A stretch of 64,000 nucleotides of DNA from an uncultured Corynebacterium sp. (GCF_946998835.1 NZ_CAMQAZ010000001.1:12396-76395); one strand, 5' to 3'. Positions 12,581 through 59,928 are shown, counted from the stretch's first letter. Notes: generated by a model from the sequence alone, not told the origin. A program made the numbers and translations.

Positions 12581-15500
12581 ATGCGATTTTCCAAGCGCAT
12601 TCCTGCAACTGTGCTCGCAGTTGCGACAGCCAGCGCTCTAGTCCTGGCTCCGGCTACAACCGGTTCTCCGTTCGCTCCGCAGGCACAGGCTCAGGAGCAG
12701 TCCTCCCCAGCTTCGCCTATCTCAAAAACTGTTAACACCGGTGCTCCCGCCACGACTGTCTGGGGCGGAAAACTCGATACGGATCTCAGTAACTTCGGAT
12801 CAGTATCGGTTTCCTACCCGGAAAACGTTGAGGCAGGCGAAACCTTCGAGGTCACCATCCAGCCGGGTGCTTTGAGCACAAAACGCGAGCAGATTGGTCG
12901 TATCAAGTACGACATTGCTCTTCCGGCGAATGCGGCCATCACCAGCATGACCGCTTCCGACGGCAGCGGATTTGGCACCATCGGTCGCAGCTCCACCACT
13001 GCCTACACGGTCATTCGGGTGGATAAGGATGGCAACCCAAGCGCAAGCGGCGCATACGCACGCATTACCTCGACGAACCACCAGACAGTCAATAATGGCC
13101 CCAGCTGGCACAACAATGACCCCAAGGCGGGACTGTCGGTACCTGCGAACACTCCGTTCCAGCTGCCAAAGGTGACCTTCACCCTTCAAGCTCCGGCTGA
13201 AACTGGCTCCATCGTCTTTGGCCTGCGCGGCGCAGGCCAGCCTGCAGGCCCCAAGAACGATACGAACATCGAAAACACCATGTCCTTCGCGGAAGATGGC
13301 ACCTGGAAGAACGATGCGGTTTACGTCAACGCCGGCGCAGCTGGCGCTGAGCTGCTCAAGGTCAATGTGGTGAAGTCCGACATTGTCTCCCAGGTCTCTT
13401 TGAATCAGGCCAATCTAACCTCGACCACACCAAATGAGAACAGCAAGCTCCCCGTCAGTCTGGAAGCACGCGCCACCCGTCAGAAGGACGATTCACCGCT
13501 TCCCAATGATGCGACCGTGCAGTTCCAGTCCCGCACCGCTGATGGACAGTGGACCAATATTGGCGATCCAGTGACCATCGACGGCAACTTGGCTCGGACC
13601 ACCGTTGAGATTGACGACGTGGACGGCGAAGTTTTCTTCCGCGCTGTCGTTGCCGAATACACGACTCCGAATGGTTTCAAGGTTCTATCGTCGGAAAGCG
13701 ACGAGAAGTCCGTCACCGTAACTGCGGAGAACAAGACCACCGTCACCCTTGGTGAGGTTCCCGAAAGCGTCGAGCCGGGCGTCGAGGTACCTCTGACGGC
13801 GACCTACACCGTCGATGGTCGCCCGCTGCCGGAGGGCACCACGCCGGTTGTCGTTTTCAAGGCCAACGGTGAGGAAATCGGTCAGGCAGAGGTCGACGAG
13901 GAGGGCAACGCCACTCTGAACTACACGTTCGACGCAGCTTCCGAAGCGCCAGTCGAAATCACTGCCGAAGTTGCTGAGATTGTCGATGCCAACGCCGGTA
14001 ATCGAACTTGGCCCGCGGCAGCTTCCGGCGCGAAGACCATTAACGTCAAGTACAACCAGCGCGAATCCACCACCACCATCACCTCCCCTGCTGAAGGCGA
14101 GAACATGGGCACAGGATTCAAGGACATCACCGCCCGCGTGGATGTCGCCGATGACAGGCCAATCGGTGACGACGCGAAGGTTGAGTTCTGGGTCTACAAC
14201 GAGGACTTCTCAGAGGGCCTCAACATGGGCGAAGGCAACAACAACGGCGACGGGACCTTCACCATCAGCCGCCCCTTCGCACCGGGCGCCAGCCGCATCG
14301 AGGCACGCTTCCTAGGCTCCGCGACTGCGCTGCCATCGACTAGTGCCCCGGTCAACGTCACTGCTGACGAGGTCCGCATCACTGTCTCCGACAAGTCCGA
14401 CACCACCTGGGACTCCGCCACCAAGACAGATGTCACCATCGGCGACGAGACCGACCTGAAGGTCACCGTCACCCATTCCGATTCGCAGAGCGTTAACCGA
14501 CAGCCAGTAAAGACCGGCCAAGTCGAGTTCTACATCGGCGAAGAAAAGATTGGCGAGCACACGCTTTCCGACGCCGACAACGGTGTGGCCGCAATTAAGT
14601 ACGACTTCGCAGACAAGTCGGGCGAGCAGGTCGTTGTCGCAAAGTACCTGGGTGTAAACAATGCCCAGAACCAGGTCGGCATCGAGCCTTCCGAGTCCTC
14701 GTTCACCTTCAACCTGGCAAAGAAGGCCCACGACACTAAGACCGCAGTCTCTGCCGAGTGGTCCGACGAAACACCAGTTGAGGGTGATAACCCGGCAGAC
14801 ATCTCGGCTACGGTCACCGATGCTGAGGGCAACCCCGCCCCTGCTGGAATCAAGGTCGAGTTCTTCAACGGCGAAAACACCCTGGGAACTGCTACCACCG
14901 ACGAAAACGGTGTGGCCACACTTAGCGATGTGACGCTGTCCAACGACGATCACACAATCAAGGCTGTCGTAGAAGAGCAGGAAGTCGACGAGAAGCTCCA
15001 CTCTGCTAGCGAAGGTACCGCGAAGCTGAGCAAGCGCGAGGTTCCAGCTGAGCAACCAGAAACACCGGAGGAGCCGGACACCCCTGAGAATCCGGCCGAC
15101 CCCGAGGCCCCGGACGCTCCTGAGGAACCAGGCACGCCGGACAACCCGGACCAACCAGGCACCCCTGAGGATCCGGCCGACCCTGAGGTACCTCAGCCAG
15201 ATCCGAATGAGCCACCGGTCGCCGAGCCGGAGAACCCGGGCACCCCTGAGGACCCGACTGACGCTGAGGAACCAGGTACATCGGAAGACCCGACCGTCAT
15301 CGATATCCCGGCCCCAACCTGGGTAGACCCATCCGCGGCTGATCCACAGCGATGTGGTGAACCCGCCTTCGTAGAGATTCCAGAAACCGACGGAGTCGAA
15401 TACGAAATTAACGGTAAGGCTGTCGATGCCGGCAAGCACGAGTATGGATTCAATGGACCGGAGGAGGTAAAGGTCACCGCTAAGCCTCGCGATGGTTATG

Positions 15501-16156
15501 CCTTCAGCGATGATGCGGTCACAGAGTGGACCTGGCGCACCGATGGCATCGAAGAGTGCCCTCCGGTTACCCCAGGCGACGATAAGCCGGGCACGGACAA
15601 GCCAGGTACCGACAAGCCGGGCACCGACACCCCAGGCACCGATAAGCCGGGCACGGACAAGCCAGGTACCGACAAGCCGGGCACCGACACCCCAGGCACC
15701 GATAAGCCAGGTACCGATAAGCCAGGTACCGACAAGCCAGGCACCGATAAGCCGGGCACCGACACCCCAGGCACCGATAAGCCAGGTACCGACAAGCCGG
15801 GTACCGACACCCCAGGCGGCGACAAGCCGGGCACCGATAAGCCAGGTACCGATAAGCCGGGCGACAATGACGGTAAGGGCCAGTCCTCGGCATCTCAGCC
15901 GTCTGTTGCAGGGTCATCGAACGGATCCAGCAGCAGCTCTAGCACAGGCAATGGCAGTGGGATGTCGTCCAGCAGCTCTTCGAAGTCGCAGTCCAACGCA
16001 GAATCTAACGCTAAGTCCGAATCTGCAAAGTCTTCGTACGGCAGCCTGGCCAAGACCGGTGTAACCGCCGTAGCGTCGATGCTTGGCATCGCAGCAGTGG
16101 CAGTCATCATCGGCATCGCTTTGATGGCTATCCGCCGCAAGAACGATGACAGCTAA
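12581..16156 (+). CDS. Sortase-anchored cell-surface protein (1191 aa) with Ig-like repeats, acidic Pro-rich linker, PGTDK tandem repeats and an LAKTG sorting signal
   Basis: Signal peptide MRFSKRIPATVLAVATASALVLAPA. The C-terminus has LAKTG (16046-16060), then a hydrophobic TM (VTAVASMLGIAAVAVIIGIALMAI) and an RRKNDDS tail. This is the classic sorting-signal architecture. The LAxTG variant is the type used by the corynebacterial housekeeping sortase (SrtF class). Confidence 0.8.
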   Translation: MRFSKRIPATVLAVATASALVLAPATTGSPFAPQAQAQEQSSPASPISKTVNTGAPATTVWGGKLDTDLSNFGSVSVSYPENVEAGETFEVTIQPGALSTKREQIGRIKYDIALPANAAITSMTASDGSGFGTIGRSSTTAYTVIRVDKDGNPSASGAYARITSTNHQTVNNGPSWHNNDPKAGLSVPANTPFQLPKVTFTLQAPAETGSIVFGLRGAGQPAGPKNDTNIENTMSFAEDGTWKNDAVYVNAGAAGAELLKVNVVKSDIVSQVSLNQANLTSTTPNENSKLPVSLEARATRQKDDSPLPNDATVQFQSRTADGQWTNIGDPVTIDGNLARTTVEIDDVDGEVFFRAVVAEYTTPNGFKVLSSESDEKSVTVTAENKTTVTLGEVPESVEPGVEVPLTATYTVDGRPLPEGTTPVVVFKANGEEIGQAEVDEEGNATLNYTFDAASEAPVEITAEVAEIVDANAGNRTWPAAASGAKTINVKYNQRESTTTITSPAEGENMGTGFKDITARVDVADDRPIGDDAKVEFWVYNEDFSEGLNMGEGNNNGDGTFTISRPFAPGASRIEARFLGSATALPSTSAPVNVTADEVRITVSDKSDTTWDSATKTDVTIGDETDLKVTVTHSDSQSVNRQPVKTGQVEFYIGEEKIGEHTLSDADNGVAAIKYDFADKSGEQVVVAKYLGVNNAQNQVGIEPSESSFTFNLAKKAHDTKTAVSAEWSDETPVEGDNPADISATVTDAEGNPAPAGIKVEFFNGENTLGTATTDENGVATLSDVTLSNDDHTIKAVVEEQEVDEKLHSASEGTAKLSKREVPAEQPETPEEPDTPENPADPEAPDAPEEPGTPDNPDQPGTPEDPADPEVPQPDPNEPPVAEPENPGTPEDPTDAEEPGTSEDPTVIDIPAPTWVDPSAADPQRCGEPAFVEIPETDGVEYEINGKAVDAGKHEYGFNGPEEVKVTAKPRDGYAFSDDAVTEWTWRTDGIEECPPVTPGDDKPGTDKPGTDKPGTDTPGTDKPGTDKPGTDKPGTDTPGTDKPGTDKPGTDKPGTDKPGTDTPGTDKPGTDKPGTDTPGGDKPGTDKPGTDKPGDNDGKGQSSASQPSVAGSSNGSSSSSSTGNGSGMSSSSSSKSQSNAESNAKSESAKSSYGSLAKTGVTAVASMLGIAAVAVIIGIALMAIRRKNDDS
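15571..15862 (+). repeat. In-frame 15-nt tandem repeat array (about 19 units encoding PGTDK/PGTDT), including a perfect 60-bp tandem duplication
   Basis: ccgggcaccgacaag-type units. Blocks 15581-15640 and 15641-15700 are identical. Lies inside the surface-protein gene just before the Ser-rich wall-spanning segment. Confidence 0.9.
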
Positions 16157-27291: not shown

Positions 27292-28533
27292 ATGGCCAGG
27301 AAAGGCATCGTTCCTATCGAACTCGAGCTGACTTCAGGCACCTTTTACACGTTGTGGGCTCCGAGCTGGCGTGAAGGTGGCTCCGAATGGCAGGCCCTGC
27401 TCGGCCGCGGAGATGAGATCTACCTGTTCCCATCTGCGGCAAAACTGCTAGCTTTCCTACAGTCAGATGCCCCTCACGACTTCGAGCAGCATCCCAGCTG
27501 GCGCAACTTTAACCAGCAGCTGCCGGCTGCAGCTATCACGGCACCACGCCACCGTTATGACTTGATTGGGCTGCCGGAAATTCTGGCCGGTCAAGCTGAC
27601 TACGACCACGTGTCCCGCGCAGATCGCATTCTTGCTATCACCCGTTCGATTGGTGCGATTGCTGACCTCAGCCCAATCAATCAGATGTTTGCCTCTCACT
27701 CAGTCCTGGCTGCCACGCAGAACGGTGCTGACCACTTCCGGGGCAGCGGCGCGGCTCAGTGGTCAGCTATCGGCAATGTCATTCTTACCAATTGGGATAG
27801 TTGCATCGACGCTCTCGATGGCCTCGGCGAAAATACTCCAAGCATCGATGAAAAGGCCGAAACCACTGCTGCTGCCGCATTGAAGGACGCGGAGGCCGCG
27901 GAACGCGAGCGCCGTGAAGCGGCGGAGCAGAAGCGCGAAGAGGAAAAGAAGGCTGCAGAAGAAAACGCCGGCGATCCGTACGATCAGACGGTGTGGGCCA
28001 ATGCGGGCATCGACCCGATTAAGATTTCGATTGCTGGTCGCACGCTCTACACGCTGCGCTGTTACATGGGTCGTCGTCCGCTGTTCCTGGGAAGCGCCGG
28101 CGAGATTCACACGTTCTCACAGCCGCGCACGATGGTGCGTTGGCTGCTGGAGCACAAGCATCATGACATGTCTACTCTGACGACGTGGGATGAAATCATC
28201 ACTGCCGCCAACGCCGGAGAACTGGAGGCTGTGGTGCACGAGGACAACGAGTACTCGTTCACCGGTCTGGCCGAGGACATCGAAAAGGGTCCCAACGCCG
28301 TAGATACTGCCCAGCTCGCACGGGCCTACGAGCTGCTCGCCGACGCTGCTGACTGGGCTGGCGACGATGCTGTAAACGAAGTACTGGCGGGCAACCAGCA
28401 GCTGCAGTGGCTGTTGAACTTCCTGCTGGATACCGGTGAGATGTCCGAACCAGTTCCACCTTACGACGAAGAAGCCGAGGGCTGGAGGCAGCTGGAGAAG
28501 GATTTGGCCGCTCGGTTCACGACCAAGATTTAA
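27292..28533 (+). CDS. Conserved actinobacterial hypothetical protein (Rv3311-like position between upp and add); internally duplicated domain with charged coiled-coil linker
   Basis: The N-half (GIVPIELELTSGTFYTLWAP...GDEIYLFPSAAKLLAFLQSD) and C-half (GIDPIKISIAGRTLYTLRCY...AGEIHTFSQPRTMVRWLLEH) are clearly homologous. They are separated by an AEAAERERREAAEQKREEEKKAAEE linker. Confidence 0.6.
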   Translation: MARKGIVPIELELTSGTFYTLWAPSWREGGSEWQALLGRGDEIYLFPSAAKLLAFLQSDAPHDFEQHPSWRNFNQQLPAAAITAPRHRYDLIGLPEILAGQADYDHVSRADRILAITRSIGAIADLSPINQMFASHSVLAATQNGADHFRGSGAAQWSAIGNVILTNWDSCIDALDGLGENTPSIDEKAETTAAAALKDAEAAERERREAAEQKREEEKKAAEENAGDPYDQTVWANAGIDPIKISIAGRTLYTLRCYMGRRPLFLGSAGEIHTFSQPRTMVRWLLEHKHHDMSTLTTWDEIITAANAGELEAVVHEDNEYSFTGLAEDIEKGPNAVDTAQLARAYELLADAADWAGDDAVNEVLAGNQQLQWLLNFLLDTGEMSEPVPPYDEEAEGWRQLEKDLAARFTTKI

Positions 28534-33491: not shown

Positions 33492-33923
33492 CTAACGCTG
33501 ACGCTTCTCAGAACCCTGTTCGGCGAGCATTCGATCGGAGAGCAGTTTGACGGTTCTCGCGGCAGCGGCCGGTGATTCCTCGGGGTACAGCGCACGAACC
33601 AGGGTGACCGCCGGGCGGATACCGTGTTCGGCGAGCACGCTGCGAACACGCTCGCGCTCCCCCTGGGTCAACTCCAGTGGTGCCACAGGTGGCCTGCGCG
33701 TGTATGACACGACCATCACAACGCCCAGCAGCACAATGAGTCCGAGGGAAATCCACAGCGGCCATGAGTAGACAAACGACAGCACGATAAACGCGACGAT
33801 GACACCGGAGATTACGACCACCGGAACATTGACGGCAGTGCCCGGATCGTTTTGCAGACTCCGCGCGATGGCTTCCAAATCGGCCATTTGGTGCCGCTTG
33901 TTATCGCTCTCGCCGTTTTTCAC
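33492..33923 (-). CDS. Hypothetical small membrane protein (2 TM)
   Basis: 143 aa, two adjacent TM helices, basic/helical C-terminal region. No recognisable motif. Confidence 0.45.
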   Translation of the reverse strand: MKNGESDNKRHQMADLEAIARSLQNDPGTAVNVPVVVISGVIVAFIVLSFVYSWPLWISLGLIVLLGVVMVVSYTRRPPVAPLELTQGERERVRSVLAEHGIRPAVTLVRALYPEESPAAAARTVKLLSDRMLAEQGSEKRQR

Positions 33924-34029: not shown

Positions 34030-36741
34030 ATGCTGTTACCCGTCAGGAGTTCCATGCTCGCAGCCATTGCGGTTACCGTCTTTATTCTTTTGGTTCCGGG
34101 CACACTTCTCGGTTGGGCCAGTGGGCTGCGCTCAACCCTCGCACTTGCGTCTGCTGGGCCATTGACGCTGGGAGTAGTAGGTTTTTCGGCGTGGCTTTCC
34201 CACGCGCTCGGTCTCGATTACTCCTGGCTTTTCGTGATGGGCATATGGGCGTGGTTCTGCGCAGTCGGTTACCTGGTGCGCAGATTCCTTCCCCGCGCGA
34301 CACCCGAAGATGGCTTCGACTCCGGGGTCGTCACCGCGATGATTGTCGCAGGGGTTACGGTGGTCGGTTCGGTTCGCGCCATGCTCATGCTTAACGACGT
34401 CCCCGGCGGCCCCGGCGCTATCCGCGAAGCCTGGGACATGCTCTGGCACACCAACTTCCTCCGGTTCATTGATGAGGTCGCGATAGCGTCCCCCACCGCG
34501 GCCGGTGACCTGATGAATCAGGAGACCGGAGCCGAAATGTTCTACCCGACCGGCTGGCATGCCGTGGCGGGGCTGCTGCCCGGCTCGGTCTTCCTCGATT
34601 CCAATGTATTTGCATTCTTGGCGCCGGCGCTGCTTCTGCCTGCGGCAACTGCGGTGCTAGCCCGCACCGCAGTTGGCCCTAAGTGGGCTGCCTATGCTGG
34701 TCCTGCAGCTGCCGTCGCTACGCTCATGCTTCCGGAGGTTTGGGTGGCCCTCTGGCGCACATCCTCCATGCCATACCTGCTGGCGGTGGCCGCCTTGCCG
34801 ATTGCAGTGGCGCTGACTATGCGGGGCTACATTATTCCTGCCACGCTCGCCTTGGTCGGTACGTTTATTACCCATCCGGCAGCGGCTTTTGCTGCCATAG
34901 TGTTCGTCGTATTGCGGTTGATTACCCAGCCGAGTGTGAGTGGTTTAGCTCGTACGCTAGTTATTGGTGTGCTCACGTTTGCGATGACCTTCCCCGTGGT
35001 GGTGGCTGCAAAAGGGCAGGGCGAATCCGTTGCCGGCTTTACCGGACAGATTGAGATCTCTCGCTCCGAATCTCTGTGGTGGTCCCTTATCGGTTCTTCC
35101 AGTTACGCCGATGAGGCCAATTTTTCCCTCGTTGTGCTGGTTCTCATGTTGATTGGCCTGGTGGTGGCGCTTGTGTCTCGTCTGCCGGGAAGTCCATGGG
35201 CACCGTGGCCGGCGCTGGCTTTCGGGCTGTTCTTCATGGTTTCCGATAGTGCGCAGTCCCGTTGGTCGGAGCCGGCCGGCGGAATTTTCAAGTTGGTCGG
35301 TACTTTCTTCTACGACATGCCGTATCGCATCCAGGCGGTGATGGGAATCTTGCGTGCGGTGCTGGTCGGCTACGCAGTAGCGGCTGCTGTTGTGGCGATT
35401 GTGGCTGTGGCGCAGTGGATCGTCGCAAAGCGAAATGAACCTGCCCGCGCGTGGAATCCCGCGCTGGCGGTGGGAATTGTTGCGGCGCTGGCAATTGTGC
35501 CGACGACGTGGGTGAGTGGACCTGCCCAGCGTGAGGCGATTCGGGCCAGTTTCGGCAATATGTTTGTGACGGCCGCGGACCGTGAGGCGATTGGTTGGTT
35601 GTCCAAGCAGCCACATGCGTTTGAGGGGCATATTCTCAACGACCGCCGTGACGGTTCTGCGTGGATGTACGCCATCGCTGGGCTGCCAACACTATTCCGC
35701 CATTTCTCCTTCCCCGACAAAACTGCCGAGGTGAGTAAGAAGCTGCCGCCGAATGTAGATCTGCTCGGCGCAGATTCGAAATACGATGCCATGGCGCGGA
35801 AGCTGGGCGTGCACTACATCATTAGTTCCCCGCCGGGTGTGAACACGGATGGCACGGAGGCGCTGTCGATGCGCTCGTGGGCGTGGCATTCACCGGGACT
35901 GACACCTGTATATCACGACGGCTCGGTAATGATTTTTGCTGTCAACGCGATGTTTTCACCAGCGGAGCTGAAGTCGATTGTCAAAGGTTCCCCGCATCGC
36001 CCGGCGCGCCCTAACCCGCTGTGGATGCCTCCGCGCCAGCCGATTCTGCCCTCCCCCGACGAGGCCGTCGACCCGCTTGTCGGCGCGCGCATCACAGTCG
36101 ATTCCAGTCGCGCGGCTATCGATGCCATCAACTCCAATCTGCCAGGTGAACTGCAGTTGAGTGAAAAGAGCTCGCCTCACATCGATAGCATCGTGAAACG
36201 CGCGCGCACCAAGCTCCGTCAGCGCGGCGCAATCATCGGCGCACGTTCGCTTGCCGACGGCACGGCGAGCGCAGCCACCGTAATCGTTGGTCGCTCATCC
36301 GAGGGCAAAACTCTTTCGGGAGATAACATCGGCGATCGTGGTTTTTCGGTCTCCGCTGTAGTCAACTCCCCTGTCCCCAAGGACGACGCTCCTGCTGATT
36401 GGCAGTTGGCGGCGGGTGTACGTGACGGAATGGTTTTCCGTGGCTTCAATCCACACAGCAGTTACAGCGCCAGCGGGGTGCCGACAGAGTTTCGTACCGG
36501 GCTAGCTCCGGCAGTGGCGGCGAATCCGAGTTCGCGGCCGCATGCGCCGACGGTTGCGCTGTCGCTGGGCGCGGTGGGTGCCGCGACGCTCACCAACGAT
36601 TTGGCCGACCCCGCCATGCAGGACAAATGGGCTGATGCCATCGTCGATGGCGTCGCGTCTATGCTGCGGCAAAACCGGCAGCTCGTAACCGTTCCCAAGC
36701 CGCAGCTAATCTCGGAGCGCGCTGGCGTTAGAGCGCGCTAA
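34030..36741 (+). CDS. Large polytopic membrane protein (about 12-14 TM N-terminal domain plus 400-aa extracytoplasmic C-terminal domain); possible GT-C-type glycosyltransferase (DUF6541-like)
   Basis: 903 aa. The N-terminal 500 aa are hydrophobic with acidic loop motifs (AWDMLWHTNFLRFIDE). The C-terminal soluble domain carries Pro/Ala-rich segments. The architecture resembles the cell-envelope arabinosyl/mannosyl-transferase-like GT-C proteins of Corynebacteriales. No specific family was confirmed. Confidence 0.55.
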   Translation: MLLPVRSSMLAAIAVTVFILLVPGTLLGWASGLRSTLALASAGPLTLGVVGFSAWLSHALGLDYSWLFVMGIWAWFCAVGYLVRRFLPRATPEDGFDSGVVTAMIVAGVTVVGSVRAMLMLNDVPGGPGAIREAWDMLWHTNFLRFIDEVAIASPTAAGDLMNQETGAEMFYPTGWHAVAGLLPGSVFLDSNVFAFLAPALLLPAATAVLARTAVGPKWAAYAGPAAAVATLMLPEVWVALWRTSSMPYLLAVAALPIAVALTMRGYIIPATLALVGTFITHPAAAFAAIVFVVLRLITQPSVSGLARTLVIGVLTFAMTFPVVVAAKGQGESVAGFTGQIEISRSESLWWSLIGSSSYADEANFSLVVLVLMLIGLVVALVSRLPGSPWAPWPALAFGLFFMVSDSAQSRWSEPAGGIFKLVGTFFYDMPYRIQAVMGILRAVLVGYAVAAAVVAIVAVAQWIVAKRNEPARAWNPALAVGIVAALAIVPTTWVSGPAQREAIRASFGNMFVTAADREAIGWLSKQPHAFEGHILNDRRDGSAWMYAIAGLPTLFRHFSFPDKTAEVSKKLPPNVDLLGADSKYDAMARKLGVHYIISSPPGVNTDGTEALSMRSWAWHSPGLTPVYHDGSVMIFAVNAMFSPAELKSIVKGSPHRPARPNPLWMPPRQPILPSPDEAVDPLVGARITVDSSRAAIDAINSNLPGELQLSEKSSPHIDSIVKRARTKLRQRGAIIGARSLADGTASAATVIVGRSSEGKTLSGDNIGDRGFSVSAVVNSPVPKDDAPADWQLAAGVRDGMVFRGFNPHSSYSASGVPTEFRTGLAPAVAANPSSRPHAPTVALSLGAVGAATLTNDLADPAMQDKWADAIVDGVASMLRQNRQLVTVPKPQLISERAGVRAR

Positions 36742-36785: not shown

Positions 36786-37742
36786 TTAGCGGTACTCCAC
36801 AATCACCGGCGCGTGGTCAGTCCAGCGCAGGTCGTACGCTGCAGGTTTATCCACCACCGAGCTGACCGCACGCTTGAGCATCGGTTCGGTAGCCGCCTGG
36901 TAGTCAATGCGCCAACCGGCATCGGTATCGAAAGCCTTACCGCGGTAGGTCCACCAGGACCAGGGGCCGTCGGCCTCTGGGTGCAGACGACGAGTGACAT
37001 CAAACCACACCGGATCGTCGTTGAGCGCCGGGGCCTTCCACACAGAACCGTCGGAGAAGGTACCGGATTCCATCTCCTTCTCGCTGGCCTGAACCTGCGA
37101 ATCCTGCGGGGCCTCGTCCGGCCAGCAGCCGAAGACCGAGTCCATCCAGGCACGCTCCTGCGGCAGGAAACCGCTCTTGCGACGGTTGGTCTTCCAATTC
37201 TTCAAATCCTGCTCGCGGTGGCAGATATTCCAGTCACCGCCGATAACTGCGTGGTGCCCATCTCGCCCCTTCGCACCCAGTTCCGCCAGGTAGTCGGAGA
37301 AAGCATCGAGGAAACGGTACTTCTCATCCTGCTTCTCGCTGAGCGCAGCGCCAGAGGGCAGATAGAGGCTGGCAACCTGGACATCCGCATCCAGGCCGGT
37401 GTCCGCTGCCGGGGCAACGCCGCTGATAAACCGACCGGACTCTTCGAACTCCTCCGAGCCGATGCCCACCTGGACGTCGTTAAGCGGAAAGCGAGAGAGA
37501 ATGCCCACGCCGGCGCGCCCCTTGGCACCCAGATTTTCTGCACCAACCCAGTGCCATCCGGCGTCGAGAGCAGGCGCGAGGGCCGTGCGCGCCTGGTCGT
37601 CGGTGGCGCGGACTTCCTGCAGCAAAACGATGTCGGATGTGGTGTGCTTCAGCCACTCCAGCAGTCCCGGGTTGGTCTCACTGCGCTGTTTGACGGCGGC
37701 GCGAATGCCGTTGACATTGATCGTCGCGATTGTAAGGCTCAT
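36786..37742 (-). CDS. xthA: Exodeoxyribonuclease III (EEP family AP endonuclease)
   Basis: N-terminal MSLTIATINVNGIRAA, LLQEV, and catalytic GDWNICHRE...WTDHAPV. Confidence 0.85.
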   Translation of the reverse strand: MSLTIATINVNGIRAAVKQRSETNPGLLEWLKHTTSDIVLLQEVRATDDQARTALAPALDAGWHWVGAENLGAKGRAGVGILSRFPLNDVQVGIGSEEFEESGRFISGVAPAADTGLDADVQVASLYLPSGAALSEKQDEKYRFLDAFSDYLAELGAKGRDGHHAVIGGDWNICHREQDLKNWKTNRRKSGFLPQERAWMDSVFGCWPDEAPQDSQVQASEKEMESGTFSDGSVWKAPALNDDPVWFDVTRRLHPEADGPWSWWTYRGKAFDTDAGWRIDYQAATEPMLKRAVSSVVDKPAAYDLRWTDHAPVIVEYR

Positions 37743-39508: not shown

Positions 39509-40507
39509 ATGGGCGACCGCTATAACCTCTATGAGTCTCTGAAGCTGGATAGTGCAGCCAGCACTGAGGACCTCCACTCCAAGCTTTCCGATCGAATCTC
39601 CGAGCTGCGTGACGCTGGTGCCGCCGAATACTCCGGCGAGTTTCAGGAGACCTTCACTGCGCTGCAGGTACTCGGCGATGACGGACGGCGCCGCGAATAC
39701 GATGCATTGCTGGCCGATGAGAACGCCACCATCACCATTGCGACTCTGCGGGAGTTGGCAAGCCGTCCCGCCTCCGCTGCGCAGCCACAGCCTCAGCAGT
39801 CTCAGGCTCAGCAGCCACAGTGGTCGAACCCCACTCCGGCCGGAACGATGACGGTGACGACCACGGTAACCACGGATGTACCTCCGCTGCCGGAAGACGC
39901 AAGCCTTCAGGATGCGTGGAAGCGCCTGCCCCGATTCCCCAAAATCACGGCCGGCCTGCTAGCAGCTGCCTCTGTGCTGGGATACATACTGGCGGCAGCT
40001 GCGATTATTCTCGGGATCAATAATCTGAACTCCGCCCTAGCGGTGAAGGAACGTGACACTTCCTTGGCTACCTTTGGGGAAGACATCCGAGATGTCTTTG
40101 TCGGGTTAATCAATGTTAGTTCCGGTACCGCATTTTTCACCCTCGGCATCGTCATCGCTGTGATTTCGATGTACTGGCTCAATAAGGTCTTGCTGGGCCG
40201 CAACATCCGCGCTCCTTATTTCCTGGTAGCCACCACCGGTCCACTCGGCGTGGGACTCGTTGCCATGTGCTACTTCATCCAGGACGAGTCCATCATTATT
40301 TTCACTGGACTATCCGGCCTTGTTCTTATCGCTGTGACGGTTCTGGTTCTCCTCAAGGACATGCGCGCATGGTTCCGCGGCCAGGCCTTGGTCAAGACTA
40401 CTCAGCCAGCCCCTGCACAGGGTTTCGCTCCGCAGTACCCCCAGCCCCAGAACAACCAGGGCCACCAGTTCGGTCAGAATAATCCTCCGAGCAATCCGCA
40501 GAGCTAA
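39509..40507 (+). CDS. Hypothetical membrane protein: N-terminal J-domain-like helical module (no HPD), Gln/Pro-rich linker, 4-TM domain, Gln/Pro-rich C-terminus
   Basis: N-terminus DRYNLYESLKLDSAAS...KLSDRISELRD...EYDALL resembles a DnaJ J-domain but lacks the HPD tripeptide. Four predicted TM helices between residues 150 and 290. Confidence 0.5.
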   Translation: MGDRYNLYESLKLDSAASTEDLHSKLSDRISELRDAGAAEYSGEFQETFTALQVLGDDGRRREYDALLADENATITIATLRELASRPASAAQPQPQQSQAQQPQWSNPTPAGTMTVTTTVTTDVPPLPEDASLQDAWKRLPRFPKITAGLLAAASVLGYILAAAAIILGINNLNSALAVKERDTSLATFGEDIRDVFVGLINVSSGTAFFTLGIVIAVISMYWLNKVLLGRNIRAPYFLVATTGPLGVGLVAMCYFIQDESIIIFTGLSGLVLIAVTVLVLLKDMRAWFRGQALVKTTQPAPAQGFAPQYPQPQNNQGHQFGQNNPPSNPQS

Positions 40508-43284: not shown

Positions 43285-43341
43285 CTATTGTTTGTAAGCA
43301 ACGTTTTGAACAACCTCAAAAACCGCAAGGAAGTATCTGAA

Positions 43342-44664
43342 ATGACCACCAAGTACGACAACAGCAACGCCGCCAACTGGGGCCTGTCCACCCGCGCTAT
43401 TCACGCCGGTTTCGCACCGGATGCACAGACCTCCGCGCGCAACCTGCCGATTTACAACACCTCCTCCTACGTGTTCGATTCCGCTGAGCACGCCGCCAAC
43501 CGCTTCAACCTCTCGGATGCGGGCCCGATTTACTCCCGCCTGACCAACCCGACTGTGGATGCCGTCGAGCAGCGCATCGCCAGCCTCGAGGGTGGTGTCG
43601 CAGCTGTGCTGTTCTCCTCCGGCCAGGCAGCCGAGACCGCTGCTGTTCTCACCCTGGCTCGCGCAGGCGACCACTTCGTCGTTTCGCCGCGCCTCTACGG
43701 CGGCACTGAGACCCTGTTCAAGGTCACTCTGCCCCGCCTGGGCATCGACTGCACCTTCGTCGAGAACCCGGATGACCCGGAGTCCTGGCAGGCAGCAGTC
43801 CAGGACAACACCGTTGGTTTCTACGGTGAGTCCATCGCCAACCCGCAGATCGACATCCTGGACATCCCGGCAATCTCCGAGGTCGCACACCGCAACAACG
43901 TTCCGCTGATTGTCGACAACACTGTCCCGACCGCCGCTCTGCTGCGCCCGCTCGAGCACGGCGCCGATGTCGTGGTTTCGTCCACCACCAAGTTCCTGAC
44001 CGGTAACGGCTCCTCCCTCGGCGGCGTCATCGTCGACGGTGGCAAGTTCGACTGGACCCAGACCCGCAACGGCCGCTCCATCTTCCCGAACTTCACCGAG
44101 GCCGACGAGGCTTACCACGGCCTGAAGTTCGCTGACCTCGGCGCTCCGGCATTCGCACTGCGTGCTCGCGCTGGCATTCTCCGCGACACCGGTGCCGCTC
44201 CGGCTCCGTTCAACGCGTGGGTGCTGGGTCAGGGCCTCGACACTCTGGCGCTGCGCATCGAGCGCCACAATGAAAACGCCAAGGCTGTCGCCGAGTTCCT
44301 CGAGGCTCACCCGCTGGTCGCGAAGGTCAACTACGCTGGCCTGCCGAGCTCCCCGTGGCACGAGACCCTGAACAAGCTGGGCCTTTCCGGCGCCAGCGGC
44401 GTGCTCTCCTTCGATCTGAAGGATGCCGACACGGCCAAGGCTTGGAAGTTCATTGACGCTCTGAAGCTGCACTCCAACGTCGCCAACATCGGTGATGTCC
44501 GCTCGCTGGTTGTCCACCCTGCTACCACCACTCACTCCCAGTCCGATGAGGAGGGCCTGACCCGCGCCGGCATTTCCCAGGCCACCGTTCGCCTCTCCGT
44601 CGGTATCGAAAACATCGATGACATCATCGCTGACCTCGAGGCTGGCTTCGCGGCACTCGCCTAG
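43342..44664 (+). CDS. metY: O-acetylhomoserine sulfhydrylase (PLP-dependent, Cys/Met metabolism family)
   Basis: PLP-lysine region SSTTKFLTGNGSSLGG. The N-terminus MTTKYDNSNAANWGLSTRAIHAG is typical of MetY. Strong RBS AAGGAAG. The track ORF starts 18 codons earlier. Confidence 0.9.
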   Translation: MTTKYDNSNAANWGLSTRAIHAGFAPDAQTSARNLPIYNTSSYVFDSAEHAANRFNLSDAGPIYSRLTNPTVDAVEQRIASLEGGVAAVLFSSGQAAETAAVLTLARAGDHFVVSPRLYGGTETLFKVTLPRLGIDCTFVENPDDPESWQAAVQDNTVGFYGESIANPQIDILDIPAISEVAHRNNVPLIVDNTVPTAALLRPLEHGADVVVSSTTKFLTGNGSSLGGVIVDGGKFDWTQTRNGRSIFPNFTEADEAYHGLKFADLGAPAFALRARAGILRDTGAAPAPFNAWVLGQGLDTLALRIERHNENAKAVAEFLEAHPLVAKVNYAGLPSSPWHETLNKLGLSGASGVLSFDLKDADTAKAWKFIDALKLHSNVANIGDVRSLVVHPATTTHSQSDEEGLTRAGISQATVRLSVGIENIDDIIADLEAGFAALA

Positions 44665-44687
44665 ACCGTTTGTACACAGACACATTG

Positions 44688-49704: not shown

Positions 49705-52700
49705 TCAGCGGAAATCTCTACTTCGACCTGCTACCACAGGCCGCCCCAGCGCCTCGGACATATCCACCAGCCGATCGGCCACGATTGTCACCGCGCCAGA
49801 GGCCGTCTGCGCGATACCACGCACCACCATCGCCCGCGAATTCATCGCTACCGGTCGAAACCTGCTCCACAGCCCCGGCGTACACAACACATTTACTAGC
49901 CCGGTCTCGTCCTCCATTCCCAAAAATGTCACTCCTCCGGCAGTCCCCGGGCGCTGCCTATGCGTCACAACTCCCGCTACCTCCACCCGCGTCCCATCAG
50001 GCACTGCTTTCAGCTCCTCTGCCGGCACCACTCCACGTTCCTGTAAGTCTGCCCGCAACGCCGCCACTGGGTACTGCCCCGGGGTCACTCCCGTTGCCAT
50101 CAAATCTGCGGCTGCCAGCTCAAACTCCGTCATGCCGGGCAACGCAGGTGCGTCGGCAAGCGTGAGCCCCGGCAGCATGCCCTCGCTTTCCGTCGCCGCC
50201 ACGCCCGCCGCCCACAGTGCTTGCCGACGGTCAATTCCCAGCGACCCGAGCGCTCCTGCGCGCGCCAGTGCCTCCATGTGCCCAACACCCAGCCGAGCTC
50301 TGCGCGCGACATCAGCTGCGTTGACAAATGGCCGGGACGCGACGATACGCTCCGCCACATCATTGCCCACACCGGCGATGGCACCGAGCCCTAAGCGGAT
50401 GCGCCCGTCGATGACACTGGCTTCCACTGCCGAAACTGCGATGTCCGGACCATCGCAGCCGATACCGTGCCTGCGGGCATCGGCAATCAGTGACTGTGGC
50501 GAATAAAACCCCATGGGTTGAGCGCGGAGGAGCGCTACGCAGAACTCCGCCGGGTAGTGATACTTAAACCAGGCCGAGAAATACACCAACGAAGCAAATG
50601 ACTGCGCATGAGATTCAGGAAAACCATAGGCGGCAAAGGCCACAATCTTGTTCCACAGCTGTTGCCCAATCTCTGCGCCGATGCCACTGGTGTGCTGCAG
50701 CCCAGCCAGAAAACGGGCATGGAGCGCCTCCATCTTCGCCACCGAGCGTTTCGACCCCATGGCGCGGCGCAGCGAATCCGCCTCCACCCCGCTGAAGCCT
50801 GCCGCATCGACGGCCATTTGCATCAGCTGCTCTTGAAATAGCGGAATTCCCAGTGTCTTCCCCAGTGACTTCTCCAGCACTGGATGCTCATAGGTCACCG
50901 GCTCGAGCCCGTTGCGGCGGCGAATGTAGGGGTGCACGCTACCGCCCTGGATCGGACCTGGGCGAATGAGTGCCACCTCCACTACCAGGTCAAAGAACTC
51001 CCTCGGTTTCAGTCTGGGCAAGGTGGCCAGCTGCGCGCGCGATTCCACCTGGAACACACCCACCGCATCCGCGCGCGCCAGCATCTCGTAGACCTCTGAT
51101 TCCGCGACATCAATTTCCCACAGGTTCACCCTCCGCCCATGCTGTTCATAGACCAAGTCGATGCAGTGATGGATAGCCTCCAGCATTCCGAGACCAAGCA
51201 GGTCGAACTTCACCAGCCCCGCCGCCGCACAGTCATCCTTGTCCCACTGCACTACCGAGCGGCCTTCCATGCGGGCCCACTCCACCGGCACAACATCCGC
51301 AATTGGCCGGTCACAGATCACCATCCCGCCAGAGTGAATGCCTAAATGACGGGGTTGTCCGCGAAGCTGCTCTGCCAACTGCCGCACTGGCCCCGGCGGG
51401 CACACTTCCCGGTCACTGACCCACGCATCGATTACGCCCGGTGAGTACCCCAGCGCCCGTGCCGCATCGCGCAATGCACCACGCCGCCGATAAGTAATGA
51501 CATTGGCGACCTGTGCGGCGTTGTCACGACCGTATTTTTCATAGACGTACTGGATGACCTCTTCCCTACGGCCGGACTCAATATCTACATCGATATCCGG
51601 CGGTCCGTCCCGCTCTGGCGACAGAAACCTCTCGAATAACAACCCAGCGCCGATAGGATCAACATTGGTAATCCCCAGTGCAAAACACACCACTGAGTTA
51701 GCGGCCGAACCACGCCCCTGCGCCAGAATTCCTGCACGCCGGCAAAACTCGCAGATGTCGTGCACGATGAGGAAGTAACCGGGAAAGCCCAGTTCCCGAA
51801 TCACAGTCAGCTCATGCTCCAACTGCGCCCACGCTCGCGCTTGCACGGACCCCTCCCCGGCACCATCGGCTGGCCCATAGCGCCGCCGAGCCCCCGCACA
51901 GGCAATATCTCGCAGCCACGAGTCCTCATCGTGCCCCTCCGGCACCTCCCAGCGAGGCAGCTCAGGGGCAATGAGATTAAGCGTAAAAGCGCACTCACCT
52001 GCAATGTCCTGTGTTGCCCGCAGCACCTGTGGCCCCAGGTGGCGCGCTGCCGCCGATAGCTCTTCCCACGAACGCAGCCAGGCCCCACCGGCCGGCTCCA
52101 GCTGCGACTCAAAACCATCTAAGTCCTCGCGTACAGCAAGCGCCTGTTTCGCCCCTGCCAAGCGACTTGCCGCAGGTGAGGACGCCGTCGCTGCCGAGGA
52201 CATAACCTCCCGCAGGCCATACTTTGCGGCTGCAGCTGAAATAGCCTCCGAATCATCGACCGCCTGCGCGGTGGGGCTCACGCGATGCTCGAGCGCTACG
52301 TTCTCCGCACCGAAGGCCGCAATGAGTTCTTCCAGGTCGCCGACCCAGCTAACGTCGGCCAGCACCTGCCAAAAACCGCCTGCAGCCTCCCCCAACTCTG
52401 GCAGCGAGGGATAGCGGACGACGGACTTCTCCCCTGCTGACATATGCGCGTCACACAGCGCGTGGCTAAGGCTCCGGTACCCTTCCGGCCCTCGCCCCAG
52501 TACCGTGAGGGGCCGCTGTGGAAGCCCCAGTTCTGCGCCAATAATAGTGGCGATGCCAGCCTCCGCTGCAGCTTCAGCAAAACGGGCGATTCCATAGAAA
52601 CCATCACGGTCTGCCAACCCCAGCACGTTTAACCCCAAACGCGCAGCTTCGGACACCAGTTCTTCCGGGTCTGACGCACCATGCAGAAAAGAATAACTCG

Positions 52701-52968
52701 AACGACAGTGCAATTCTACTGCGATTTCCGCAGGTAACGCCGGCGCGTCACCACTGCCGCCTTCACCACTTTCCGACGAATCAAATGCCCCAACAATAGA
52801 ATCCGAAAGCTTCCCGCGCCAACCATTGAAACTACCATTAGGCTGCAGTTTTCCTGAGTAATTCCCAGATAGAATACGCTCAATCCGCGACCAGCTCAGT
52901 GGCCGACCAGACCGCCCCGACTGCCCGTCCGAGATGTTTTCCATGCCCCGAATATTAAACCACCCCAC
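49705..52968 (-). CDS. dnaE2: Error-prone DNA polymerase DnaE2 (Pol III alpha-type C-family polymerase)
   Basis: 1087 aa. N-terminal PHP domain (VELHCRSSYSFLHGASDPEELV), Pol III alpha palm/fingers and OB fold. GTG start (VGWFNIRG). Matches the short DnaE2 paralogue, not replicative DnaE1. Confidence 0.9.
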   Translation of the reverse strand: MGWFNIRGMENISDGQSGRSGRPLSWSRIERILSGNYSGKLQPNGSFNGWRGKLSDSIVGAFDSSESGEGGSGDAPALPAEIAVELHCRSSYSFLHGASDPEELVSEAARLGLNVLGLADRDGFYGIARFAEAAAEAGIATIIGAELGLPQRPLTVLGRGPEGYRSLSHALCDAHMSAGEKSVVRYPSLPELGEAAGGFWQVLADVSWVGDLEELIAAFGAENVALEHRVSPTAQAVDDSEAISAAAAKYGLREVMSSAATASSPAASRLAGAKQALAVREDLDGFESQLEPAGGAWLRSWEELSAAARHLGPQVLRATQDIAGECAFTLNLIAPELPRWEVPEGHDEDSWLRDIACAGARRRYGPADGAGEGSVQARAWAQLEHELTVIRELGFPGYFLIVHDICEFCRRAGILAQGRGSAANSVVCFALGITNVDPIGAGLLFERFLSPERDGPPDIDVDIESGRREEVIQYVYEKYGRDNAAQVANVITYRRRGALRDAARALGYSPGVIDAWVSDREVCPPGPVRQLAEQLRGQPRHLGIHSGGMVICDRPIADVVPVEWARMEGRSVVQWDKDDCAAAGLVKFDLLGLGMLEAIHHCIDLVYEQHGRRVNLWEIDVAESEVYEMLARADAVGVFQVESRAQLATLPRLKPREFFDLVVEVALIRPGPIQGGSVHPYIRRRNGLEPVTYEHPVLEKSLGKTLGIPLFQEQLMQMAVDAAGFSGVEADSLRRAMGSKRSVAKMEALHARFLAGLQHTSGIGAEIGQQLWNKIVAFAAYGFPESHAQSFASLVYFSAWFKYHYPAEFCVALLRAQPMGFYSPQSLIADARRHGIGCDGPDIAVSAVEASVIDGRIRLGLGAIAGVGNDVAERIVASRPFVNAADVARRARLGVGHMEALARAGALGSLGIDRRQALWAAGVAATESEGMLPGLTLADAPALPGMTEFELAAADLMATGVTPGQYPVAALRADLQERGVVPAEELKAVPDGTRVEVAGVVTHRQRPGTAGGVTFLGMEDETGLVNVLCTPGLWSRFRPVAMNSRAMVVRGIAQTASGAVTIVADRLVDMSEALGRPVVAGRSRDFR

Positions 52969-53122: not shown

Positions 53123-53138
53123 AAGACAGCTTGGTCTA
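53123..53138 (+). promoter_or_regulatory. Candidate McbR operator (AAGAC-N6-GTCTA) upstream of metQNI
   Basis: aagacagcttggtcta is 9/10 to the TAGAC-N6-GTCTA consensus of the corynebacterial sulfur-metabolism repressor McbR. It lies 52 bp upstream of the metQ start. Confidence 0.5.
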
Positions 53139-53189
53139 GTTCTGCATTAAAAGTTCCAAGTAACAAATCTCATCACAAGGAGACTTCCA

Positions 53190-54056
53190 ATGAATCTCAA
53201 GCGTTTTTCTGCTGGCGTTCTCACTGTTGCATTCGCCGCAACCGGCCTTGTCGCCTGTGGCAACTCCGATGAAGCCATTCGCATCGGCACCACGGACGCC
53301 AGCAAGAAGGCCTGGACCGTTTTCGAGCAGAAGGCTTCTGAACAGGGCATTGACCTGGACGTTCAAAACTTCTCTGATTACCAAACTCCGAACCGCGCCC
53401 TTGATGAGGGCCAGCTCGATGTCAACCTCTTCCAGCACATTAAGTTCCTGGCTGAGTACAACGTCGGCGCAAATTCGGATCTGACCCCGATTGGCTCGAG
53501 CGAAATTGTCCCGCTGGCTCTGTTCTGGAAGGACCACAAGTCGGTTGATGAGCTGAAGAAGGGCACCGAGGTCGCTATCCCGAACGACCCGTCCAACCAG
53601 GGCCGCGCCATCAACGTGCTGGTTCAGGCTGGCCTTCTGAAGCTGAAGCAGGACGACCTGCTGACTCCGTCTCCGGCCGACATCGACAAGGAGGCTTCGA
53701 CGGTCAAGGTGCTGCCGGTGGATGCGGCTCAGACTCCGGCCGCTTACGGCGAGGGCAAGCCGGCCATTATCAACAACTCCTTCCTGGACCGCGCTGGCAT
53801 CGACCCGAACACCGCCATCTTCCAGGATGACCCGAACTCCACGGAGGCAGAGCCGTACATCAACGTCTTTGTCACCAAGGCGGAAAACGCTGACAACCCG
53901 AAGTACGCGGAGCTCTCCAAGATCTGGCACTCCAAGGAGGTCCAGGACGCAGTCGCTGAGGACTCCAAGGGCACTTCGGTTCCGGTTGACCGTTCTGCAA
54001 AGGAGCTGCAGGAGATTCTGGATCGCGTCGAAAAGCAGCAGCGCGAGCAGAACTAA
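53190..54056 (+). CDS. metQ: Methionine ABC transporter substrate-binding lipoprotein (NlpA/MetQ family)
   Basis: Lipobox LVACG after the signal peptide, with MetQ family core (LDVQNFSDYQTPNRALDEGQLDVNLFQH). Confidence 0.9.
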   Translation: MNLKRFSAGVLTVAFAATGLVACGNSDEAIRIGTTDASKKAWTVFEQKASEQGIDLDVQNFSDYQTPNRALDEGQLDVNLFQHIKFLAEYNVGANSDLTPIGSSEIVPLALFWKDHKSVDELKKGTEVAIPNDPSNQGRAINVLVQAGLLKLKQDDLLTPSPADIDKEASTVKVLPVDAAQTPAAYGEGKPAIINNSFLDRAGIDPNTAIFQDDPNSTEAEPYINVFVTKAENADNPKYAELSKIWHSKEVQDAVAEDSKGTSVPVDRSAKELQEILDRVEKQQREQN

Positions 54057-54117
54057 CGCCGCCACCTAAGCACCGCCCAACACCCGGGCACACAGACCAA
54101 GGGGCACTGATTCACTC

Positions 54118-59233: not shown

Positions 59234-59928
59234 TAGCCTCTCCTCCGTACGGGAAAAGCCACCACATTGTTCTGTGCTGCCTGCTCACCTACCCGCCAGC
59301 GGCACTGCCGCCGCGGAAACCGCGTCCCCGACACACTGACTTGGTAATCCACTGCCCGAATCCGACCATGACCAGCACCAAGACCGGAAACATCAGTAAC
59401 AGAGCTGGAAATCGTTGCCACAGCTCCCGGCCACTGCCGCCCCACAAAGACCAGAGCACAACCATTCGTGCGCAGTCGCGCCTGCAATGGACGCGCCTGC
59501 GACGGTGCCGGAGTACAAGACAGTGAGGCCACCACCAGGTCAACGCCGTCCGCCAGCAGCCCAATTACCTCAAGCGGCTGCATCCCAGGATCTGGCACGC
59601 AGATGATGTTCGACAACTTTCCACCCAGCTCCGTAACAGCGAGTAGTCCCTGCTCGGCAACTCCCACCAACGCAACATGCCCTGTCTTCGTAGCTTCCGC
59701 AATTAGGCCTGCCAACACTGCACCGGGCTGTTCAATGACACTGACCGCCCCTTTCCGGACCGTTCCCGCCAATGTATTTTCCAACGCCACCGGCACCGGC
59801 AGCGCCTCGCCGAGCCCAAAGGTTTCGCCAGTTGCAGCCCCGCCAGGCTGTGCAGCCATTGCTTGCCTGAGCGCCGCAATAGTCTGTTCCTTAGACTGCC
59901 CAGCAGCAATGTTGACCGCCGTTGTCAT
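59233..59928 (-). CDS. imuA: ImuA' (RecA/SulA-fold mutasome accessory protein)
   Basis: 231 aa, Ala/Gly-rich. Positioned 5' of imuB as in the mycobacterial imuA'-imuB operon. Weak RecA-like P-loop remnant. Called mainly on position and composition. Confidence 0.6.
   Translation of the reverse strand: MTTAVNIAAGQSKEQTIAALRQAMAAQPGGAATGETFGLGEALPVPVALENTLAGTVRKGAVSVIEQPGAVLAGLIAEATKTGHVALVGVAEQGLLAVTELGGKLSNIICVPDPGMQPLEVIGLLADGVDLVVASLSCTPAPSQARPLQARLRTNGCALVFVGRQWPGAVATISSSVTDVSGLGAGHGRIRAVDYQVSVSGTRFPRRQCRWRVGEQAAQNNVVAFPVRRRG

Follow-up and report, generated by a model that had tools for sequence, protein, structure and literature searches.

A clade-restricted DUF6541 membrane protein of Corynebacterium as a candidate cell-wall-decorating GT-C glycosyltransferase fused to a degenerate amidase-like domain

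The stretch of DNA analyzed here (64,000 nucleotides (nt), hereafter the window) comes from an uncultured Corynebacterium sp. (GCF_946998835.1, NZ_CAMQAZ010000001.1:12396-76395) and carries, between the gene of a small membrane protein and xthA, a gene for a large polytopic membrane protein that is the subject of this study (Table 1). An earlier note, made from the sequence alone, had described the gene as an open reading frame (ORF) of 903 amino acids (aa) with these two flanking genes and as a candidate cell-envelope glycosyltransferase of the GT-C class. The ORF is indeed present and uninterrupted on the + strand, and both neighbors, which are on the opposite strand, are where the note had placed them. 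Met9, the second Met, is probably the true start and would give a protein of 895 aa, because the homolog alignments all begin at this residue, the identical public NCBI protein is 895 aa long, and an AGGAG is positioned 4 nt 5' of the ATG at nt 34054. In the stretch 34030-34056, the sole N-terminal Arg falls within the extra eight codons. Residues are numbered below from the first ATG.

Orthologs were found in a conserved block, dac-yihY-trpS-smallTM-X-xthA-MFS-...-icd, in at least eight Corynebacterium genomes, with aa identities of 85% in C. amycolatum, 50% in C. lactis and about 38-40% in C. xerosis and its allies. With C. amycolatum DSM 6922 as the reference, the ratio of nonsynonymous to synonymous substitution rates (dN/dS) was 0.135 for the whole gene, with regional values of 0.119 in the transmembrane (TM) part, 0.114 in the periplasmic domain, 0.121 in the linker, 0.159 in the amidase-like domain and 0.369 in the final 18 residues, compared with 0.04-0.12 for the neighboring genes. 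A chance ORF is excluded by the syntenic orthologs and the whole-gene ratio; the gene is real and constrained, and evolves somewhat faster than its neighbors. A scan for promoter and terminator consensus sequences around the gene returned none exceeding the shuffle expectation.

Residues 17-639 match the Pfam family DUF6541 (PF20176) with E=5e-65 and a score of 220.4 bits (cut-off 29), a match that covers positions 1-645 of the 646-position model. Besides DUF6541, no Pfam family was found in the protein at E<=1, and a scan of 66 diverse relatives (19-56% identity), on which the family conservation and the family profile used throughout were built, gave DUF6541 alone, apart from scattered single-member chance matches. 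The Pfam profiles of the Emb, Aft, Mpt, GT87 and PMT families (Arabinose_trans, AftA_N, AftA_C and others) were unmatched by the protein and by the 66 relatives, and the Emb/Aft/Mpt membership suggested by the earlier note was thus not borne out. Its description of the protein as unannotated was half right, in that public records already read 'DUF6541 family protein', but the family is one without an assigned function; no mention of DUF6541 was found in the literature searched. An exhaustive profile search recovered 3,303 DUF6541 representatives at 50% clustering (1,885 of them at E<=1e-30), nearly all of 640-720 aa, and about eight representative clusters cover the full-length profile including the C-terminal extension. 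All named proteins of the long form (~900 aa) come from Corynebacterium and bear no label other than 'DUF6541 family protein'; rather than being distributed across the mycolata, as the earlier note had considered, this form turned up in the C. amycolatum/xerosis/lactis group only. Ten further long DUF6541 proteins were scanned against Pfam to see whether they carry other C-terminal modules, and no recognizable domains were found.

The protein was modeled with AlphaFold2 (AF2) from a 23-sequence alignment, giving a predicted local distance difference test score (pLDDT) of 85.6 and a predicted template modeling score (pTM) of 0.85. Foldseek matched the model to STT3B, DPY19, ArnT and AftA at E ~2-3e-5, and structure comparison recovered the conserved helix arrangement of the GT-C fold, with STT3B, AglB and PglB ranked best, AftD and AftA on a par with ArnT and Pmt4, and scores of 10.7 for AftB, 7.9 for PimE and 7.1 for EmbA. 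The closest structural neighbors fall outside the Emb/Aft/Mpt families. At the sequence level, a PDB search with the whole protein as the query gave nothing significant; the family profile matched human STT3A (E=0.0016, profile positions 429-604), which was its sole PDB match. In this alignment R433 pairs with the Arg of STT3A 'VMVRLM', and the DGSxWMYA motif of the family stands opposite the WWDYG region of STT3A. A further stretch, 'WDxxWHxNxxRxIxDxG' opposite STT3A 'FDPYFNYRTTRFLAEEG', is sub-threshold (domain score 0.1 bits, independent E-value ~1.8e3); this STT3A stretch presumably holds the catalytic Asp. Based on the Foldseek matches and the profile match to STT3A, the protein is a GT-C, as the earlier note had proposed, and its nearest solved relatives are catalytic subunits of oligosaccharyltransferases (OSTs), not Emb proteins.

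Topology was derived from the AF2 helix boundaries together with (K+R)-(D+E) counts for each loop over the 66 homologs. The sign of the loop charge alternates without exception across these homologs, which supports 14 TM helices with both termini outside, at the upper end of the 12-14 helices counted in the earlier note. Because of this alternation, the loops 123-186 and 328-366, the region of R433 and everything past residue 507 are predicted to lie outside. The first of these loops, 64 residues long and flanked by loops of alternating charge, carries an acidic motif such as the note had described for the loops: E/Q-x-W-D136-x-x-W-H140-x-N-x-x-R145-F-I-D-E149-x-G, followed by F-Y172-P173-x-x-W-H177, with R145-F-I-D-E149 as the literal RxxDE of the protein. 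Over the 66 homologs, D136 and H140 are each conserved in 98%, Y172 and P173 in 100%, H177 in 97% and R433 in 100%; further polar residues conserved family-wide are N142, R145, D/E149, H282, D541, W545, Y547 and H558, and all of the conserved polar residues sit in outside segments. D136, the predicted catalytic residue, provides the conserved Asp/Glu that is characteristic of the first long outside loop of GT-C enzymes.

Outside the putative active-site loop, R433 at the outer end of TM13 is a candidate ligand for the phosphate of a lipid-linked donor, a role proposed by analogy with PglB R375 and its counterpart in STT3. The three N-terminal TM helices, which precede the GT-C core and include an invariant P23-G24, may correspond to the extra TM helices of AftA, and the flexible loop 328-366 may function as the mobile donor-gating loop of GT-C enzymes (EL4/EL5), as ECL5 was described as the donor gate in AftA (PMC10265970). 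In the cytoplasmic TM3-TM4 loop (residues 89-99; 34294-34326), orthologs from the C. xerosis group insert up to ~50 residues of Gly/Pro/Ala-rich low complexity (columns 94-152 of alignment A1), and the remaining TM domain is ungapped.

The 400-aa C-terminal soluble region of the earlier note is real and spans residues 508-903, but it is not one domain; it is made up of a pair of domains with a conserved Pro-rich linker between them, and half of it is a degenerate amidase fold. The first domain, an alpha/beta domain that belongs to the GT-C module, holds the conserved D541-G542-S-x-W545-M-Y547-A and H558. In 13-16 long-form proteins the linker has S654, P655, R669, Q670, P671, I672, P682 and G685 as invariant residues, and given its modeled pLDDT of 77-93 it is not a floppy tether. 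Residues 686-885 share both the fold and the sequence homology of Amidase_3, and the C-terminus also matched the Rv3717 amidase family of NCBIfam far below threshold. In Ami1 of M. abscessus, the zinc triad is H25/E60/H115 and the catalytic residue is E190 (PMC7694207; chain index = paper number minus 9). The hidden Markov model (HMM) alignment places G754, which is invariant in 13 Corynebacterium long-form proteins, opposite H115, and S845 opposite E190. H25 and E60 are outside the region aligned by HMMER, and their loss was judged from the lack of any conserved His or Glu in the domain: across residues 686-885 in 14 sequences no His/Glu was conserved at >=60%, and only D799, D860 and D873 passed. 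An active amidase was considered and rejected, since the equivalents of H115 and E190 are lost and no conserved His/Glu could substitute for them. Since the mapped catalytic residues were lost without conserved replacement, the domain is predicted to be no peptidoglycan hydrolase, and on its sequence it appears to be a constrained yet catalytically dead amidase fold outside the membrane. Being conserved, and docked as a unit in the model, it could be a wall-recognition, acceptor-positioning or regulatory module. A precedent from the same taxonomic order is CwlM, an amidase homologue that regulates MurA (PMC4946905).

Table 1. Location of the gene, its parts and neighbors in the window, and of selected DUF6541 genes on other contigs (last five rows).
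Feature	Residues	Location	Strand	Remarks
143-aa two-TM protein		33492..33923	-	divergently transcribed neighbor
Whole ORF		34030..36741	+	903 aa from first ATG; stop 36739-36741 (ORF list)
Three N-terminal TM helices	9-86	34054..34287	+	AF2 helices 2-30, 42-59, 66-86; before GT-C core
First long extracytoplasmic loop	123-186	34396..34587	+	putative active site; net charge -3.6
Flexible extracytoplasmic loop	328-366	35011..35127	+	net charge -2.2; pLDDT <50 at 333-340
Arg433 codon	433	35326..35328	+	outer end of TM13; motif Y-[ND]-x-x-x-R
Periplasmic alpha/beta domain	508-653	35551..35988	+	part of GT-C module
Pro-rich linker	654-685	35989..36084	+	S-P-H-x-P...P-x-R669-Q-P-I672...E678..P682..G685
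Degenerate Amidase_3 domain (Ami1/Rv3717-like)	686-885	36085..36684	+	extracytoplasmic; predicted non-catalytic
G754 codon	754	36289-36291	+	equivalent of Ami1 H115
S845 codon	845	36562-36564	+	equivalent of Ami1 E190
Variable tail	886-903	36685..36738	+	pLDDT <50 at 890-903; orthologs unalignable
xthA, exodeoxyribonuclease III		36786..37742	-	convergent; TIGR00633 E=1e-51
Georgenia tandem DUF6541		L081:8001-12896		paralogs separated by one GT2
Quadrisphaera tandem DUF6541		L082:8001-13646		paralogs separated by 377-aa protein without known family
Short DUF6541 paralog, C. lactis		L018:5938-7992		after rpsD-rpoA-rplQ-truA, before ESX genes eccB/mycP/eccD/eccC
Short DUF6541 paralog, C. falsenii		L017:5485-8103		after rpsD-rpoA-rplQ-truA, before ESX genes
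Short DUF6541 paralog, C. aquatimens		L088:6001-8163		truA/ESX locus; HNH/DUF222 endonuclease gene inserted after truA

The gene of the 143-aa neighbor adjoins the GT-C gene in 8/8 syntenic genomes, with 54-93% identity, and no significant Pfam or NCBIfam family was found for it in our scans. This two-TM protein might be a flippase or an accessory protein for the GT-C, and we note it as a candidate tie. The window otherwise has a housekeeping content, including pcrA/uvrD, an aldehyde dehydrogenase gene, genes for two surface proteins with Big_3_5 domains, pgi and lpd, and further genes for an M20 peptidase and adenosine deaminase, dac, trpS, xthA, icd, folD, an S9 peptidase gene, dnaE2 and imuB. 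The two surface proteins (10124-12538 and 12581-16156, both +) are adjacent, of 804 and 1191 aa, and have repeated Ig-like Big_3_5 domains; the second has, in addition, a Big_1 domain and a Pro-rich stretch resembling extensin, and both are likely surface adhesins. A 332-aa protein (39509-40507, +) combines predicted membrane segments with a DnaJ-like domain of weak score at its N-terminus (E=0.004) and a tail rich in Q and P. It has diverged far more rapidly than its neighbors, its matches in relatives being short or 37-59% identical compared with 84-97% for icd. On the - strand, a DnaE2-type error-prone polymerase (49705-52968; DNA_pol3_alpha and PHP domains), an ImuB-like Y-family protein (57611-59233; IMS domain) and the 231-aa ORF that abuts it (59233-59928) resemble an imuA'-imuB-dnaE2 mutagenesis cassette interrupted by unrelated genes. 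Four candidate ORFs, at 27292-28533 (+), 43285-44685 (-), 53136-54065 (-) and 61173-63119 (+), had no Pfam match at E<=1e-5; they encode 413, 466, 309 and 648 aa, respectively, and some of them overlap ORFs on the opposite strand.

Distant relatives of the gene stand in more telling surroundings. In Pseudonocardia, a DUF6541 gene begins 3 nt past the gene of a GT2 with a C-terminal TM domain, and on a metagenomic ENA contig it overlaps a DUF2304 gene beside that of a 235-aa GT2, among sugar-nucleotide genes. In Rhodococcus aerolatus, DUF6541 occurs next to a GT2+DUF2304 pair, together with a second GT2, Wzm/Wzt and GT87, and in Georgenia and Quadrisphaera tandem DUF6541 genes are found among those for GT4/GT2, Wzm/Wzt or Wzx, UDP-sugar dehydrogenase and pyruvyl transferase. 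The combination of Wzm/Wzt and DUF6541 recurs in four Microbacteriaceae-like loci (two Microbacterium genomes, a metagenome bin and contig L085), three of them with a GT2 and some with an LCP ligase, GT4 or LGFP protein. Contig L085 was considered as a mycobacterial galactan locus (Rv3779-Rv3783), but its Wzt is 78-81% identical to those of the Microbacterium loci, which assigns it to the Microbacteriaceae. In Corynebacterium itself, a shorter paralog (25-30% identical to the window protein) occupies the truA/ESX locus of three species (Table 1).

GT2+DUF2304 is the GacI/GacJ module of S. pyogenes for polyprenyl-monophosphate-sugar synthesis (bioRxiv 10.1101/180810), and PpgS/Rv3632 of M. tuberculosis is a polyprenyl-monophosphate-sugar synthase module of the same type (PMC3485146). 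Outside the cell, the polyprenyl-monophosphate sugar is used by a GT-C, GacL or Rv3779, respectively, to modify a wall polysaccharide (bioRxiv 10.1101/180810; PMC3485146), a paradigm that holds more generally (PMC11127046). The synthase modules beside the distant relatives, together with the alignment of R433, suggest that the window protein may use a polyprenyl-phosphate-sugar donor, and the presence of distant homologs in cell-wall glycan clusters agrees with the cell-envelope role that had been proposed for it.

Taken together, we hypothesize that the protein is an extracytoplasmic, lipid-phosphate-sugar-dependent GT-C of the DUF6541 family that decorates a cell-wall glycopolymer and carries a fused, dead amidase domain, a proposal that we favor on balance; a second, clade-restricted DUF6541 GT-C decorating a wall glycopolymer is the best-supported reading of the gene. 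In this model, a polyprenyl-phosphate-linked sugar would be made on the cytoplasmic face and flipped across the membrane to its outer face, where it would be bound at an outer-leaflet site with D136 as the catalytic base, H140 as its i+4 partner, Y172 and H177 nearby, and R433 holding the donor phosphate. The sugar would then be moved onto a wall glycopolymer already present outside the membrane; arabinogalactan or a lipoglycan is the most likely acceptor. According to a review, the arabinogalactan of C. amycolatum and C. xerosis has extra glucose, in contrast to that of C. glutamicum or C. diphtheriae (PMC3658426). Since the clade with the long paralog includes both of these species, this extra glucose is a candidate for the transferred sugar, the relationship being a correlation only. 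A decaprenyl-phosphate-arabinose (DPA) or polyprenyl-phosphate-mannose (PPM) donor is equally possible, because no dedicated synthase gene is nearby. The analysis shows the fold, the topology, the conservation, the loss of the mapped amidase residues and the surroundings of the relatives; from these, donor type, acceptor, sugar and the part played by the dead domain are inferred.

Several points weigh against this proposal. Among the 26 proteins scanned in the window, there was no GT2, GtrA, DUF2304 or sugar-nucleotide gene, and no other glycosyltransferase or polyprenyl-phosphate-sugar synthase gene was found there; therefore, donor and acceptor cannot be read from the local context, and it is the contexts of distant paralogs that point to a donor of the monophosphate type and to a glycan as the acceptor. 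Among solved folds, those nearest to the protein are OSTs, enzymes whose donors are pyrophosphate-linked oligosaccharides and whose acceptors are peptides. The proximity of the putative active-site residues and the docking of the domains are as predicted by the model (pLDDT and pTM) and the alignments. Finally, the muropeptide contacts of Ami1 are replaced in the C-terminal domain (D117 by S756, R173 by E820, D175 by F821), and because these residues were not retained, the argument is weakest where it assigns a role to the dead domain.

To our knowledge, no GT-C chooses its acceptor through a fused wall-recognition domain. It is nevertheless conceivable, although rather unlikely, that the protein is a 'wall-templated' enzyme, whose dead domain, rigidly docked on the OST-like site, still recognizes peptidoglycan or the muramic-acid/linker region to which arabinogalactan is attached. 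If so, it would glycosylate peptidoglycan itself, or a wall polymer only where this meets peptidoglycan, with the corollary that the clade-specific arabinogalactan glucose of C. amycolatum and C. xerosis would have its missing enzyme in the long paralog.

The favored proposal of a wall-decorating DUF6541 GT-C gives a testable function, with named catalytic residues, to a large uncharacterized family (~3,300 clusters at 50% identity). The combination of a GT-C with a catalytically dead peptidoglycan-amidase fold was not found in the literature searched, and it hints at the targeting or regulation of a wall-modifying enzyme at the peptidoglycan layer. The proposal also nominates a candidate gene for a clade-specific modification of arabinogalactan or lipoglycan in C. 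amycolatum, a mycolate-free and often multidrug-resistant skin opportunist whose envelope biosynthesis has been little studied.

Other readings of the same evidence have to be weighed. The kinship with OSTs raises the question of whether the protein transfers a glycan en bloc from polyprenyl-pyrophosphate to a peptide or protein acceptor, that is, to cell-surface proteins or peptidoglycan stem peptides, with the amidase fold presenting the peptide. The match of the profile to STT3A, in which the Arg and the WWDYG region are aligned, is consistent with such an activity, as is the descent of the fused domain from a muramyl-peptide-binding enzyme. However, the family motif lacks an Asp at the key position of WWDYG, the peptide-contact residues of Ami1 are lost, and the relatives adjoin monophosphate-sugar synthase modules and ABC-exported polysaccharide clusters rather than protein-glycosylation loci, and we consider en bloc transfer unlikely. 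It is also improbable that the protein is a true Emb/Aft/Mpt member that builds an arabinan or mannan backbone from DPA or PPM, even though it shares the layout of AftA and a catalytic Asp with an i+4 partner, and stands, as many mycobacterial GT-Cs do, as a lone GT-C in a housekeeping region. The failure of all of those families' profiles speaks against membership, a DPA or PPM donor could be used without it, and the restriction of the long form to one Corynebacterium clade, together with its evolution being faster than that of its neighbors, is more readily explained by a decorating enzyme than by one that builds the core backbone.

The clear degeneration of the amidase fold and the precedent of CwlM mentioned above could also be taken to mean that both modules are inert, and that the protein serves in the membrane as a scaffold or a regulator, for instance of wall synthesis or of peptidoglycan hydrolases. 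This is very unlikely, since D136, H140, Y172, H177 and R433 are 97-100% conserved in a family of thousands of homologs, the TM domain has a dN/dS of 0.12, and short DUF6541 members that have no amidase fold sit in glycan clusters. Least of all do we expect a transporter or permease, an assignment that the earlier note had named as one that would refute its reading. The number of TM helices is what one would see in such a protein, and major facilitator superfamily (MFS) and solute carrier (SLC) proteins and EfpA do appear low in the Foldseek ranking; but these and other transporter matches all had E>0.02, a probability of no more than 0.2 and a TM-score of no more than 0.18, no transporter family of Pfam or NCBIfam was matched, and this reading was rejected as hardly tenable.

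The favored DUF6541 GT-C can be compared with several known systems. DUF6541 comprises actinobacterial integral membrane proteins, with which the window protein shares the invariant G24, D136, H140, Y172, P173, H177 and R433; typical members stop after the periplasmic domain, whereas the window protein continues with the conserved linker and with 200 aa of degenerate amidase fold. This fold is fused to a membrane glycosyltransferase, in contrast to Ami1, which is a free secreted enzyme. Among the GT66 enzymes (STT3/AglB/PglB), STT3A aligns with the family profile over the last TM helices and the luminal domain, where the invariant Arg is paired and the W-x-Y motif of the family stands opposite WWDYG, and more weakly over the catalytic-Asp loop. 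However, the WWDYG of GT66 is not present in the window protein, which has D-G-S-x-W-M-Y-A (541-548) with neither a WW pair nor the Asp, and the sequence identity is 9-11%. The predicted topology of 14 TM helices with the N-terminus outside differs as well from that of GT66 enzymes, which have 13 TM helices and the N-terminus inside, and the contexts of the DUF6541 relatives favor monosaccharide decoration of polysaccharides over en bloc glycosylation of proteins.

AftA (Rv3792, GT85; structure 8IF8) has extra N-terminal TM helices, an 11-TM GT-C core and a capping periplasmic alpha/beta domain, and its catalytic D128 on the first long loop is held by R132 at i+4 (PMC10265970). This layout is shared, and D128/R132 of AftA parallels D136/H140 of the window protein. 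By contrast, the i+4 partner is Arg in AftA and His in the window protein, the extra TM helices number two in AftA and apparently three in the window protein, and AftA has no amidase-fold extension; the window protein has no AftA_N or AftA_C match and an identity to AftA of 12-16%. The GacL and Gtr systems, made up of a GT2 with or without DUF2304, a flippase and a GT-C, follow the same logic as proposed here: a polyprenyl-phosphate sugar of cytoplasmic origin is flipped and then used by the GT-C to decorate a wall polysaccharide that is ABC-exported and LCP-anchored (bioRxiv 10.1101/180810; PMC11127046). Their GT-C is of another family than DUF6541, and the partner genes, which flank DUF6541 in several actinobacteria, are not encoded nearby in the organism of the window.

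Compared with the paralog at the truA locus, the window gene is a second, clade-restricted one that is located between trpS and xthA and has the amidase fold. In C. glutamicum, the gene after truA is presumably cg0658/NCgl0543, encoding RptA, a GT-C rhamnopyranosyltransferase that adds terminal rhamnose and reportedly has 13 TM helices and an 'RXXDE' motif. Based on the position of the paralog and this motif, RptA is a strong candidate for membership in DUF6541, and Rv3779 is a candidate that we also lean toward, with less assurance. RptA is stated to decorate arabinogalactan with rhamnose, and a 'structurally very similar' protein of M. tuberculosis to add galactosamine (PMC3123699); Rv3779 transfers galactosamine or N-acetylgalactosamine (GalN(Ac)) to arabinan with polyprenyl-P-GalNAc as the donor (PMC3485146). 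RptA and Rv3779 are polytopic GT-Cs that decorate arabinogalactan from a polyprenyl-monophosphate donor, which is the activity that we propose for the window protein.

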